This document shows positions 2,076 through 5,375 of a DNA stretch of 8,558 nucleotides, in pieces. Below the pieces are notes generated by a model. The model did no database searches and had not been told where the DNA came from. It worked only from the letters and a program-made list of their open reading frames with translations. A program made the translations under genes and the position numbers. The first letter of the stretch is position 1, and every line of letters starts with the position of its first letter. This DNA comes from a virus (lineage: Duplodnaviria; Heunggongvirae; Uroviricota; Caudoviricetes), in IMG/VR virus record IMGVR_UViG_2690316276_000007. One strand, 5' to 3'.

Positions 2076-3583
2076 TGTTCTGGAATAAGAAAAATAAAAA
2101 TTCAGAAACTAAACCCAAGAAGATTAAACAGGAACGTTCCTTAAAACAAAGTACCTTAAAACGAGATCTACAGGCAGTACGCAACACATCAGTAATGAAC
2201 TTCGGATTCAATTCAAACTCAGGCAGCAATATCAACTTCCTTCTGATGAAAGCACTACCTACCTTCAGGGCTTTCTCACGTGATGCAGTACTTAAGAATC
2301 CTATTGGTCGTAAGTACATGAACCTATCGGTAGATGGCGTTGTAGGCTCTGATGGCCTGTACGTTAAACCTTCAGTAGAGATTGACGGTACTGAAGAAGA
2401 AATCAACGGAATCAATCTAACCTTGGAAAAGCTCTTTGACCGTTGGGCATATGATGCTGATCGTTTTAGTGTTGATGGCTCATTAAGTTTTGACCTGTTT
2501 CAGCAGAACGCAGAGAAGGTAAGGGTCCAGGATGGTGAATGCTTTATTCGTATACACAATATTAATAATACCATCAAGTTAGAAATTCTCGATACGGTTC
2601 GTTTGCTTCAGTTAAATAATCAACGTTTGAGTAATGGTAATTATATTAGTAATGGTATTGAATTTGATAAATGGCATAAGCCAGTTAATTACTATTTCTG
2701 TAAATTCGATCCTGTTACCTATACTTATATCACTGGCGATTATGAAGTAATTCCCGCTGCGGAAATCTGTCACTACTTTATTGCTGATCAACAAGGCCAG
2801 GAACGCGGATTGCCGGACATGGTTGCAACTTCCAAATTAATGGAAGATCTCAAGAACTTCACTGAGGCTGCGTTAACTGCGAAACGTGTATCTGCATCGT
2901 CAATGGCTTTTATTACCAATAATAACGACACTACCAGTACTGATCTGTTAGGGGCTGATGAACGAGAAGAAGTTACACCAGTATATACAGAGTATTTTGA
3001 AGCTGGCTTTATTGGTGAGTTAGCCGAAGGGCAGGATATTAAAACTGTTACACCTACTAATGGTGTTGATGGGATTGATCAATTTACCAATGAATTGATG
3101 AATCAGATCTCGATGGGTCTGAACATAACAAAGCAAGCCTTATTATCTGATACATCCAATGCTTCATTTAGTGCAAGCCGACTTACTGAGAAATTACAAC
3201 AAACTACATTCCGTACCCGTACTAATGTACTAATCAGTAAAGTACTTAAACCAATTTATATCGCCTGGTTAAAGAACGAAATGCTAAATAACAATAAGTT
3301 AAATCTAAGTTTCTCGAGCTTTGATGATCTTATTTGTGCTCGGTATATTTCTCAAAAGCCAATTAGTTTAGATCCTGTAAAGGATATACAGGCTGAACTA
3401 CTCCAGTTAGAAGCAGGTATTAAATCTAAAACACAGGTTATTGCTGAGTTAGGCGGTGATCCAGTGAAGGTATTAGCAGAGGTACAGGCAGAAAAGGATA
3501 AAGAAAATAAAAACAAGGAAGTAATCCAGGATGGAAATGAAAAACCAGAAGAGGGAACTAACGAAACCCCTACAGGCGATTAA
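2075..3583 (+). CDS. Portal protein, lambda gpB family
   Basis: By-eye alignment to lambda gp[12 protein letters not shown]...VDGVVGS ~ ARADDLVRNNG...[15 protein letters not shown]...IAWLKNEM ~ SYSTARASANE...LCWLEEAI; LEAGIKS ~ IEAGLST. GGGAG 9 nt before the ATG; synteny after terminase. Confidence 0.85.
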
Positions 3584-5375
3584 TACAGAATCGCGTACCA
3601 TCGAAGTAGCGTTTTGTTCAGAAACCCCTGTAGAACGTGAAATCAACGGTCAAATCTATAACGAAATTCTTCTATGTGGTTCCAGTAACGCAGACCTAAC
3701 CCGCCTTAATAACAATGGGGCAGTACTCTTTAACCATAACCGTGATGATCTTATTGGTGCTGTAGTTGATGCACGAGTGGATGCTGATCGCGTTGGTAGA
3801 GCTACATTACGAATTAGCAGTACCGCCAACGATGAATGGGAAATGATTCAGGAAGGCGTACTAACCCATATTAGCATTGGCTATAACATTAATGATTATC
3901 AAATTGATGGTAATAATATCTATGTTACCAACTACGAAATTTATGAAATCTCATTAGTAACAGTCCCTGCCGATCCTACCGTTGGGGTAGGTCGTTCAAT
4001 GGACTCACAACTTGCATTGAAATCACTAAATAAAGAAGGTGAAACAATTCAAGAGGGTCAAATGGATATGGATAATCCAGAAAACGAAAAGGAATCAATT
4101 GTTGATAGTACTGAAGAAGTAAATGAAACAATTGAAGAGGCATTAGTAGAGCCATCGGTCGAATATGCAGAAGAAATCAAACAAGAATTAAGTGATGAAG
4201 AACTTTTAGAAATTATCTCTACTCGACCTGATTTGCTCAATAAAGTACATGGTGAAGAACCAGAAAGTATAAATAGTACAGAAGATACTGAACGTGTTCG
4301 TGAATTAGAAGCACTCGGTAAAGTACTTAATATTGATGTATCTGAAGCAATTGAAACAGGAATTTCAATTTCAGATTTCAAACGTCAATTGAATGACATT
4401 AAACAAAATCCTCTTCATGATAAGGAAATCAAAGAAATGGATAATAAAAATCTATTAAAAGATATGGTACGTGCCATTAAAACTGGCGATAAATCTGCTC
4501 TTGAAGCATATGAACGTGGTATTAATGGTTTTGTACGTGCGGCTGTACCAAGTACTAATACTACTACCGCTGCTGGCGTTGTAGCTGATGACCTACAAGA
4601 TCAATACATTCCAGAACTACTAAAAATTTCTGCACTTGGTGAACTAAACACCACTGTTTATTCTGGCCTTGCAGGTCGCGGTACTCTAAGTATTCCAAAA
4701 GCGGCTGGTGTATCTCCGGTATTTAAATTCTATGGTGAAGCAGAAGCACAGGATGATTCTATTGCAAGCTTTACTAAAGTAACCCTAAGCCCTAAAGCTT
4801 TTGGTGGTGCTATTCCACTATCCAAACAAGCAATTCTAACGGCTCCAAATATTGAATCATTTGTACAAAGTGAACTACTACGGTATGCCGCTCAGGGTCT
4901 TGAGCAAAATGTAATGGATAAAGTAGTTGCCGCTGCTCCGGTGTTCAATGTTGAAACTGCTGGTTCTATTACTCTTGAAGATGTTCAGGGTGCAGTAGCG
5001 AAGCTGGCACAGGCTAACGTTGATATGCGTGGCGTTAAAGCTGTTATGAACGCTAAAACCCTAAGTACCCTACGTCAGATTGCAGTACTTGATAACACTG
5101 CTGCTAAAGCAATGGTTGAAGGTTATCGCAGTACTGAAATGTGGCTTGCTGATGAAGTACGTGTAGTGATTTCTGAATTCGTAGCAGATGGTACTATTCT
5201 AATGGGCGATTTCTCCAATGTAATTCTCGCTAATTGGGAAGGGCAGGAAGTAGATTATGACGATACATCCTATCGTTCAAGTAACACTATCGTATATCGC
5301 GTATGGGATTACTCAGATATCGCACTTGCACACTCTGAAGCTTTCGTAAATATCGTTATTGGTAAAGCAGAATAA
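3531..5375 (+). CDS. HK97-type prohead protease / acidic scaffold-like linker / HK97-fold major capsid protein fusion
   Basis: N-terminal 160 aa carry the HK97 prohead protease pattern ([10 protein letters not shown]..., [23 protein letters not shown]). Residues about 160-330 are strongly acidic and helical. C-terminal 285 aa look like an HK97-fold capsid protein. Start may be ATG 3531 or 3537; overlaps the portal 3' end. Confidence 0.8.

Follow-up and report, generated by a model that had tools for sequence, protein, structure and literature searches.

The fusion of a prohead protease, a scaffold segment, and a major capsid protein (MCP) in a single gene is an architecture that is already known, with a PHROG family (phrog_617), a curated NCBI name, and published accounts for Miki, MD8, and Gifsy-2. 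The phrog_617 fusions of isolated phages (Agrobacterium phage Miki gp39, Vibrio phage VP882 gp07, Halomonas phage phiHAP-1, Dinoroseobacter phage R4C gp006, the Xanthomonas phages FoX and Murka, and Burkholderia phage Mica) are made up of a Peptidase_S78 domain of ~160 aa, a scaffold segment of ~160 to 200 aa, and an HK97-fold capsid domain, for a total of about 600 to 680 aa, and their genes follow those for a gpA terminase, a small head-tail joining protein, and a lambda-family portal protein. In HK97, on the other hand, the protease (gp4) and the capsid protein (gp5) are encoded by two genes that lie 2 nt apart. Gifsy-2 reportedly carries a "tripartite capsid gene" in a lambdoid head module, which encodes a protease, a scaffold-like middle, and an MCP and from whose product the N-terminal parts are removed; it is also said to use a gpD-like trimer. 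Gp5 of Pseudomonas phage MD8 similarly contains a protease, a scaffold-like middle, and an MCP in one gene, and its N-terminal parts are removed on maturation (PMC8508860). The proteases of both of these fusions are ClpP/lambda-gpC-like. Nesting of protease and scaffold genes is well established in lambda (C/Nu3), herpes simplex virus HSV-1 (UL26/UL26.5), and Haloferax virus HFTV1 (gp17/gp17.5), in which translation from an in-frame start immediately beyond the protease domain gives large amounts of a product that has the same C terminus but no protease, so that the protease is substoichiometric. The fusion in a CBASS escape preprint is a protease-scaffold fusion and not a capsid fusion, and a paper on the Stx2 phage Sp5 had no bearing on the question.

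We analyzed a window of 8,558 nt (the whole stretch of DNA, from the Caudoviricetes record IMGVR_UViG_2690316276_000007 of IMG/VR) in which a fusion of the phrog_617 type follows lambda-type genes. The features concerned were the following.

73..1533, plus strand: gpA-type large terminase gene without the N-terminal part of the ATPase domain (matches to Pfam GpA_nuclease and to GpA_ATPase, the latter only from position 109 of its 247-position profile)
2075..3583, plus strand: lambda-family (gpB-like) portal gene, directly upstream of the fusion gene (Pfam Phage_portal_2, E 3.7e-59)
3531..5375, plus strand: protease–scaffold–capsid fusion ORF (614 aa, 67.4 kDa, pI 4.4; ATG start, TAA stop)
3573..3995, plus strand: Peptidase_S78 (HK97-type) prohead protease domain, residues about 15 to 155
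3996..4568, plus strand: acidic linker, a delta-domain-like scaffold segment, residues 156 to 346
4569..5372, plus strand: HK97-fold major capsid domain, the predicted mature capsid protein, residues about 347 to 614 (268 aa, 28.7 kDa)

The first 53 nt of the fusion ORF overlap the portal gene, which ends at 3583, and are preceded by the SD-like sequence CAAGGAAG at 3514-3521 (anti-SD duplex, -6.1 kcal/mol); an alternative start is the ATG at 3537, where 612-aa homologues begin. An earlier note on this DNA had described one 614-aa frame containing a protease, an acidic segment, and an HK97-fold capsid domain, and the Pfam matches agreed with this, as did the phrog_617 profile, which covered the protein end to end (residues 3 to 607 against profile positions 6 to 620 of 626; E 9.5e-84). 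The domain order and the genomic position were those of the phrog_617 fusions of isolated phages, to which the identity was only 23 to 31%. The NCBIfam model NF045541, "prohead protease/major capsid protein fusion protein," gave 126 bits, below its cutoff of 525, and only profile positions 1 to 250 of 634 were matched; the 614-aa protein has the same architecture as the NF045541 proteins but lies outside that narrow model.

The N-terminal domain has the prohead-protease (herpesvirus-protease-like) fold and was matched by Pfam PF04586 (Peptidase_S78) at residues 61 to 153 (E 1.4e-9; 38.8 bits against a cutoff of 21). The score for the NCBIfam equivalog TIGR01543 (proheadase_HK97) was 47.2 bits, less than the cutoff of 59, which makes the protein a homologue below the equivalog level. 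When aligned with hhalign, His69 (codon 3735-3737) paired with His65 of HK97 gp4, and Ser115 (codon 3873-3875) paired with Ser114, the two HK97 residues being those that we take to be catalytic. His69 and Ser115 were invariant in the homologue alignment, and a conserved SLVTVPAD motif ended at residue 148. No ClpP or S49 match was found in the 614-aa protein with Pfam or NCBIfam; since the N-terminal domain is Peptidase_S78, assignment to the Gifsy-2/MD8 type, with its ClpP/lambda-gpC-type protease, was ruled out.

The linker alone matched no Pfam domain. Its acidity, noted earlier, was borne out (26% Asp plus Glu and a net charge of -26 in residues 156 to 330; 29% Asp plus Glu in residues 170 to 300), but the accompanying description of a ~170-aa helical segment fitted only part of it. 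In the AlphaFold model, residues 144 to 220 were of low confidence and disordered and five helices lay within residues 222 to 324 (222-239, 250-266, 271-276, 280-290, and 297-318), so that the linker as modeled is only partly helical. Alignment to TIGR01554 (major_cap_HK97) started at residue 266, which corresponds to profile position 44 and thus lies within the delta region found at the N terminus of HK97-type capsid proteins that stand alone. The linker is longer than the HK97 delta domain (about 170 to 190 aa versus 102) and strongly acidic. The C-terminal domain has the HK97 fold, as had been proposed; Pfam PF05065 (Phage_capsid) matched residues 350 to 608 (E 1e-17; 64.9 bits against a cutoff of 24.2), and TIGR01554 scored 76.5 bits against a cutoff of 27.5. 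The protease family, catalytic residues, and capsid fold are therefore common to this fusion and to HK97 gp4/gp5, and neither has a separate scaffold protein, but what HK97 encodes in two genes is here a single frame. Consistent with the earlier note, searches with Pfam, PHROGs, and NCBIfam detected neither a Nu3-like nor a D-like gene in the interval from the portal gene to the tail genes, and no counterpart of the Gifsy-2 gpD-like trimer gene was found at the locus.

Because HK97 keeps the protease and capsid genes separate, we considered the possibility that the single frame was an artefact, either of sequencing or assembly error or of a recent pseudogene fusion of two separate genes; nothing else was found in its favor. 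The identical 614-aa protein is indexed in 149 blocks of an assembly collection, and several of the 24 contigs that were read were complete Shigella sonnei chromosomes. Moreover, the frame was open through the protease match in 80/80 related genomic loci from many phyla, where most complete ORFs were 580 to 700 aa long and a few exceeded 700 aa because the first in-frame start lay further upstream. The frame was likewise uninterrupted in 74 unique close relatives, and full-length matches were obtained in the isolated phages VP882, phiHAP-1, Xanthomonas FoX phages, Mica, and R4C. Neither a stop nor a frameshift, either of which the earlier note had held to count against a fusion, thus separates the domains in the 80 diverse loci or the 74 close relatives. 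The identical copies and the open frames across relatives effectively refute an assembly artefact, and an artefactual origin of either kind is extremely improbable. These results confirmed the ORF as genuine and intact and place it in a large family of three-part head genes that has already been described.

This family comprised 5209 clusters (50% identity; E<=1e-3) from many phyla, and nearly all of the best 150 of the 5209 were 580 to 680 aa long; throughout the family, fusion is the norm. With so many clusters, a PHROG of its own, a curated NCBI name, and several accounts in print, such fusions are not uncommon, contrary to the first reading of this locus. That reading was correct in identifying the upstream genes as lambda-type gpA/gpB, on the basis of the GpA_ATPase, GpA_nuclease, and Phage_portal_2 matches, but not in regarding this context as peculiar, since a lambda-family portal gene was directly upstream in 69 of ~70 loci; the same portal–fusion gene order is present in VP882, R4C, and Mica. 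A gene occupies the gpW position between the lambda-type terminase and portal genes. The close relatives of the fusion are in uncharacterized enterobacterial prophages, and the DNA of the window was found in Shigella sonnei and related prophages, with no match to positions 3300 to 5700 by megablast against 5,426 complete E. coli genomes. The prophage in which this copy of the 614-aa fusion resides is damaged by IS elements. In S. sonnei 53G, an IS3-family element interrupts the terminase gene, with a 104-aa GpA_ATPase fragment and the IS immediately upstream, and IS911 begins at about position 7313 in the window. Because of this damage, the copy is unlikely to build phage, and the fusion gene is probably cargo of the prophage that no longer contributes to virions.

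The closest solved relative of the capsid domain is the R4C capsid protein, which was the only hit of a PDB sequence search; no solved precursor of an S78-MCP fusion was found there. The deposited R4C virion chain (PDB 8gta_A) is exactly residues 362 to 629, the 268 C-terminal residues, of a homologous 629-aa fusion. The R4C capsid is T=7 and has no decoration protein and no crosslinks (R4C structure paper), and at our locus the crosslinking Lys169 of HK97 aligned with Gln407, in a low-confidence alignment with an hhalign probability of only 50%. The R4C structure paper makes no mention of a protease, of cleavage, or of the N-terminal 361 residues, a marine-phage proteomics paper contained no relevant peptide data, and the 268 residues of the chain may be no more than what is ordered in the protein. 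There is nevertheless indirect support for release of the capsid domain by proteolysis, namely, the invariance of the two catalytic residues, which align with those of HK97 gp4, and the lack of residues 1 to 361 in the R4C virion chain. The full-length protein would co-assemble into a T=7 procapsid as a capsid subunit, with its protease and scaffold segment inside. The protease would then cut residues 1 to about 346 off its own chain and off its neighbors, leaving a mature capsid protein of ~28.7 kDa that is predicted to start near Ala347, with no decoration protein. The proposal in the earlier note that self-cleavage releases the capsid domain thus fits the invariant residues and the R4C chain, but it is probably not the whole story, given two conserved sites within the gene.

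4051..4070, plus strand: candidate internal translation start A, with SD-like AAGAGGG (4051-4057) and then ATG 4062 (Met178) and ATG 4068 (Met180)
4422..4439, plus strand: candidate internal translation start B, with SD-like AAGGA (4422-4426; Lys298 AAG plus the GA of Glu299) and then ATG 4437 (Met303)

Met178 was kept in 86% of 118 homologues despite its position in the least conserved region. Among 82 diverse loci, an SD motif plus ATG was present in the window equivalent to start A in 75.6%, compared with 13.5% for other windows of the same ORFs, 20% after codon shuffling (a control that only imperfectly covers the bias of acidic linkers, which are rich in SD-like GAR codons), and 9.8% and 0% for the remaining two frames (Mann-Whitney p 2e-24). 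About a quarter of these loci lacked the motif at the threshold used. In the enterobacterial clade, the level was 95% versus 17% and 13%. In the diverse set, strong SD-ATGs piled up at start A and nowhere else along the gene. R4C and VP882 also carry start A, and in 74 unique close relatives its SD core persisted while the encoded residues varied. The SD motifs of the internal sites (GAGG/AAGGA) are moderate, at about -6 kcal/mol, and the full-length start, start A, and start B are of equal SD strength (-6.1, -6.3, and -6.2 kcal/mol, respectively). A conserved in-frame start codon with a putative ribosome-binding site after the protease domain, the sequence mark of a nested in-frame gene, is present here. 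The predicted product of start A is a scaffold-capsid protein of 437 aa and 47.7 kDa without the protease, and its layout, a 169-aa helical/acidic N-terminal segment followed by the MCP, is like that of HK97 gp5 with its delta domain.

For start B, the Met303 codon was ATG in 99% of 74 unique sequences (39 to 100% identity), and the Lys298 codon was AAG in 74/74, although AAG made up 25.5% of all Lys codons in these genes and other conserved Lys columns were mostly AAA. The predicted product is a capsid protein of 312 aa and 33.4 kDa with a propeptide of ~44 residues. In two independent metagenome contigs (L170 and L171), a frameshift and stops were found just upstream of start B, and its ATG is therefore the only way into the capsid frame; this split variant could, however, be a defective element. 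A second SD-ATG hot spot near the start of the capsid domain was sought in the diverse set and was not found, and start B is claimed only for the enterobacterial clade for that reason, being absent outside it. A locus with an MCP-only gene call (L169) was uninformative, since its frameshift lies downstream of start B and its "start" is a GTG chosen by the gene caller, and contig ends appear to have truncated the other short homologues (P0143, P0161, P0139, and others).

If ribosomes start at Met178/180, a site found family-wide and in many bacterial phyla, the 47.7-kDa protease-free scaffold-capsid protein would be made, and if they start at Met303, in the enterobacterial clade only, the 33.4-kDa short-propeptide capsid protein would be made. 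A nested gene would thus be predicted to give products of about 67, 48, and 33 kDa, the protease would be on only a minority of subunits, and the ratio of protease to capsid would be set thereby. The simplest competing account, that of the earlier note, is a pure polyprotein in which translation starts only at Met1 or Met3, a protease and a scaffold segment are present on each of the ~415 capsid subunits, the capsid domain is freed by self-cleavage alone, and the internal SD-plus-ATG motifs are idle or have another role. This would be consistent with the one uninterrupted ORF throughout the family, with the single CDS in public annotations, and with the published accounts of Miki and MD8, which give a three-domain polyprotein only. 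Against it, the ATG and the SD motif are kept at the nucleotide level despite the local amino acid variability and the codon-usage background. Furthermore, by a rough estimate made by hand, a cargo of 415 x 38.7 kDa would take up more than half of the interior of a T=7 prohead, versus about a quarter with mostly the 19-kDa linker. We regard a pure polyprotein as rather unlikely.

We also considered whether the SD-like motifs might be signals for translational pausing or cotranslational folding at domain boundaries or vestiges of a gene junction like that of HK97 gp4|gp5. Indeed, both sites lie at domain boundaries (the end of the protease and the start of the capsid N-arm region), and with the HK97 protease stop and capsid start only 2 nt apart, it is easy to see how loss of the stop codon could have fused the two genes. 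However, a pause signal would not require an ATG 5 to 10 nt downstream of it, but 99% of sequences retain the ATG at start B and 73 to 86% at start A. A vestige would not outlast divergence to ~25% identity across phyla, nor would it fix a synonymous site in 74/74 sequences, and the split variant of L170/L171 needs start B as a start. Pausing or vestigial motifs are thus very unlikely to account for the sites. Rather, the sequence conservation suggests that at least one of the internal SD-plus-ATG sites is probably used to start translation. For a triple-nested head gene, with full-length, protease-free scaffold-capsid, and nearly bare capsid proteins and with start choice setting the ratio of protease to scaffold to capsid, the sequences tip the balance only slightly in favor. 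Overall, a three-part, single-frame head gene, including a mechanism with protease-free internal products, is with fairly good confidence the best explanation.

The use of internal start sites appears to be unreported for protease-capsid fusions. Nothing was found on it in the literature on such fusions, the inspected records and papers on the phrog_617 phages do not mention it, and the public records of VP882, R4C, and Mica each annotate the fusion as a single CDS. The position predicted for start A, in frame and just after the protease domain, is that of the starts in lambda C/Nu3, UL26/UL26.5, and HFTV1 gp17/gp17.5. The C-terminal part that the products of those genes have in common is a free scaffold protein, whereas in the products predicted here it would be a scaffold fused to the capsid protein, and the fusion gene would, unlike them, possibly have a third start that leads to a nearly bare capsid protein.

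The fusion architecture in itself adds little, as it has a PHROG family and a curated name, has been published, and is very common among prophages. In practice, it is of value chiefly for annotation, since the usual label for these genes, just "major capsid protein," conceals both the protease and the scaffold segment. What merits follow-up is the internal-start signal. If the internal starts are used as proposed, they would explain how a fused gene avoids packing ~415 proteases per shell and would give a simple, testable rule for procapsid composition. The expression of such genes for capsid-like particles would also be affected, since one gene could yield three products. Moreover, the nested principle of lambda C/Nu3 and UL26/UL26.5 would be extended to the capsid protein itself, and the nested-gene strategy of lambda, the herpesviruses, and an archaeal virus would reach one more layout of the head-maturation module.

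The window carries its protease-scaffold-capsid fusion gene within the following run of head and tail genes.

Genes of the window
73..1533, + strand: gpA-type large terminase, with the N-terminal part of the ATPase profile unmatched
1545-2075: 176-aa gene in the lambda gpW position, matching phrog_5774 ("head-tail joining") over its C-terminal 90 residues only
2075..3583, + strand: lambda-family portal gene, overlapping the fusion gene by 53 nt
3531..5375, + strand: protease-linker-capsid fusion ORF, 614 aa, ATG to TAA
Directly after the fusion gene: 107-aa gene with a weak gpFII-like match
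5714..6106: 130-aa gene
From 6124 (ORF start), after the 130-aa gene: large repeat-containing gene

Both domains of the fusion protein scored above the curated Pfam cut-offs, with Peptidase_S78 spanning residues 61-153 (E 1.4e-9) and Phage_capsid residues 350-608 (E 1e-17), bearing out the earlier note's description of one 614-aa frame with a protease signature and a capsid domain. The residues between them (156-330) are 26% Asp+Glu, with a net charge of -26. In an AlphaFold model of the window protein, built on 30 homologues, a beta-rich N-terminal domain (residues 15-143) and a C-terminal domain (residues 360-610) were predicted with confidence; residues 144-220 were disordered, and five helices lay within residues 222-324. 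Therefore, although the linker is indeed acidic, its description as helical fits the second half only. His69 and Ser115, invariant across the homologue alignment, paired in a profile alignment with His65 and Ser114 of HK97 gp4, reportedly its catalytic residues (Duda et al. 2013).

The identical protein appears in 149 indexed blocks of a public assembly collection, and several complete Shigella sonnei chromosomes (e.g., HE616528.1) were among the 24 contigs read that encode it. The frame was open through the protease match in 80/80 related loci from one-genome-per-species contigs, drawn from Enterobacteriaceae, alpha-, beta-, and gammaproteobacteria, Verrucomicrobiota, Chlamydiae, Cloacimonadota, Synergistaceae, Dehalococcoidales, and others, and likewise in 74 unique close relatives, mostly viral contigs. 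No stop or frameshift of the kind envisaged earlier thus separated protease from capsid in these 80 loci and 74 relatives, and the possibility that the single frame is an artefact was rejected on these open frames and on the complete chromosomes. Most complete ORFs among the 80 loci were 580 to 700 aa long; the few above 700 aa were longer because their first in-frame start sits further upstream.

The observation in the earlier note is confirmed, and its interpretation is supported at the core. The protease-capsid fusion itself is already known and is ordinary for phage head modules. The paper on the Gifsy-2 "tripartite capsid gene" is reportedly the classical precedent. Among profile families, phrog_617 is a full-length family of these fusions, phrog_4523 is named "major head and protease protein," and the NCBIfam model "prohead protease/major capsid protein fusion protein" shares the architecture, with the window protein falling below its narrow cut-off. 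A 95%-identical protein is named [quoted passage not shown] at JGI, and actinophage genes are routinely annotated "Major capsid and protease fusion protein." In Agrobacterium phage Miki, a single gene has been described as encoding a Peptidase_S78 domain and a scaffolding domain of 160 residues each, together with an HK97-fold major capsid protein; capsid and protease are also fused in Rhodobacter cluster RcC phages and in Pseudomonas phage MD8 (PMC8508860), where the protease is of the ClpP type rather than Peptidase_S78. An HMMER scan of 1.84 billion cluster representatives returned 5209 clusters at E<=1e-3 (2283 at E<=1e-10), the best 150 of the 5209 being almost all 580 to 680 aa long; therefore, the earlier characterization of such fusions as uncommon was not accurate. 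Four proteins from the scan (P0164, P0207, P0222, and P0254) are 800 to 890 aa long, and an additional N-terminal domain precedes their protease-scaffold-capsid unit, the protease beginning only at residue 230 to 280.

In 69 of about 70 diverse loci, the gene immediately before the fusion on the same strand was a homologue of the window portal, and 56 of them had a gpA terminase. The lambda-type gpA/gpB context noted earlier was confirmed, but it is usual for the family and not special to the window. The gene order is the same in the deposited genomes of Vibrio phage VP882, Dinoroseobacter phage R4C, and Burkholderia phage Mica, all with homologous fusion genes, and their gpW-position genes match the window's 176-aa gene in size and place; lambda gpW, at 68 aa, is far shorter. 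The start of the fusion gene overlaps the portal 3' end in a different frame (3531-3583), as does that of VP882 over 44 nt.

R4C, the closest solved relative, encodes in gene 006 a 629-aa protein with the same three parts, annotated "major capsid protein" only. The capsid chain in the virion cryo-EM map (8GTA) consists of exactly residues 362-629, which fits removal of the N-terminal 361 residues on maturation; the R4C structure paper is silent on their absence. In the window protein, the corresponding position would be about Ala347, giving a predicted mature form of 268 aa and 28.7 kDa. TIGR01554 models HK97-type capsid proteins that stand alone, together with their N-terminal delta region; its alignment begins at residue 266, in support of the view that the helical part of the linker is a putative delta-domain-like scaffold. 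By homology, the putative proteolytic release of the capsid domain proposed in the earlier note appears well supported. The T=7 capsid of R4C lacks both a decoration protein and covalent crosslinks. Likewise, no gpD-like gene, nor any Nu3-like gene, was detectable in the window with Pfam, PHROGs, or NCBIfam, and within their reach the earlier statement that separate scaffold and decoration genes are lacking holds.

The window copy is a relic within an IS-riddled Shigella prophage. The match of its terminase ORF to the ATPase profile begins only at position 109 of 247, and in S. sonnei 53G (L001 4898-8003) an IS3-family element splits the terminase gene, a 104-aa N-terminal fragment and the element lying just upstream. 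With its gpA-type large terminase disrupted, the prophage is expected to have lost the ability to package DNA. At 7313-8558, a copy of the IS3-family element IS911, 99.8 to 99.9% identical to E. coli copies, cuts the ORF starting at 6124, leaving 402 aa versus the 808 to 883 aa of other S. sonnei genomes, where the product ends in a C-terminal Peptidase_S74 chaperone domain; intact copies are 883 aa long. The G+C content is about 38% in the prophage and 51 to 57% in IS911, the head and tail genes being AT-rich relative to the host (33 to 43% G+C per 500-nt window). Within the same large gene, downstream of the head genes, a 75-bp tandem repeat (6905-7219; 4.2 copies, 79% identity) encodes 25-aa units (…TGSVPDTRTVNGHVLSEDVVLSSED…); the N-terminal 150 aa of the product resemble phrog_158 ("major tail protein"), the repeats resemble tail/head fibre PHROGs, and in intact copies a separate 157-aa Phage_tail_3 tube protein follows. 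Positions 3300-5700 had no megablast match among 5,426 complete E. coli genomes, and the prophage seems confined to S. sonnei among complete genomes; NCBI labels identical or near-identical proteins E. coli or Shigella sonnei.

Two candidate internal starts lie within the fusion gene. At the first (site A, Met178/180), Met178 is conserved in 86% of 118 aligned full-length homologues, within the least conserved part of the protein, and AAGAGGG precedes ATG178 (nt 4062) and ATG180. Predicted anti-Shine-Dalgarno pairing is -6.3 kcal/mol for ATG178, -6.2 for ATG303, and -6.1 for the annotated start; the motifs at both internal sites are moderate in strength. An in-frame ATG whose pairing reached at least -5 kcal/mol in strength, 12 to 70 codons past the protease PAD motif, was present in 75.6% of 82 diverse loci at about 25% identity (Mann-Whitney p 2e-24), about a quarter lacking site A at this threshold, compared to 13.5% for equal-sized windows elsewhere in the same ORFs, 20% for the codon-shuffled region, and 9.8% and 0% for the two other frames. 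Site A was the sole pile-up of strong Shine-Dalgarno-ATGs along the gene in this set, the motif being GGAGG in R4C and AGAGG in VP882. In the enterobacterial clade (64 of 74 unique sequences, the other 10 lacking the anchor motif), the value was 95%, versus 17% in other windows and 13% after shuffling. Moreover, a purine core (GAGGA, AAGGA, or GAAGG) is kept while the encoded residues differ (EG, KD, ED, EE, or ER).

Site B (Met303) is specific to the enterobacterial clade, with ATG in 99% of the 74 sequences; Met303 is conserved in 98% of the 118 homologues, and TAAGGAA precedes ATG303 (nt 4437). The Lys298 codon is AAG in 74/74, whereas AAG accounts for just 25.5% of the Lys codons across these genes and AAA predominates at other conserved Lys columns (K284, 68 AAA and 4 AAG; K306, 66 AAA and 2 AAG). 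This is a synonymous-site constraint preserving AAGGA 6 to 9 nt ahead of ATG303. Two independent metagenome contigs from different samples carry the same variant (L170 1460-1520 and L171 1385-1443), in which a frameshift about ten codons upstream ends the protease-scaffold frame (290 aa) just past the site-B ATG and stop codons lie in the capsid frame just before "GATAAGGAAATCAAA ATG," so that the capsid protein could be started only at that ATG. These loci are a naturally split version of the fusion gene; they could alternatively represent a programmed-frameshift arrangement or a defective element.

On the sequence signals, we consider it fairly probable that at least one of the two sites is used as a start. 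The simplest reading of both would be a nested gene with three predicted products: the full-length protease-scaffold-capsid protein (67.4 kDa), whose initiation the portal overlap could hold low; a 47.7-kDa scaffold-capsid protein without the protease, starting at Met178/180 and laid out like HK97 gp5 with its delta domain; and, in the enterobacterial clade, a 33.4-kDa capsid protein that would start at Met303 and carry a propeptide of about 44 residues. In lambda C/Nu3 and herpes simplex virus UL26/UL26.5, one frame yields little protease and much scaffold, and a recent ribosome-profiling preprint reports the same in-frame strategy for gp17/gp17.5 of archaeal virus HFTV1. No mention of internal starts in protease-capsid fusions was found in papers, coverage of which was incomplete, or in the VP882, R4C, and Mica records. 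By a rough estimate, 415 copies of the 38.7-kDa internal segment would occupy over half of the interior of a T=7 prohead. A nested gene, if true, would remove this packing problem of internal cargo, and the conserved internal Shine-Dalgarno and ATG signals offer a cheaply testable hypothesis on how fused head genes may control procapsid composition.
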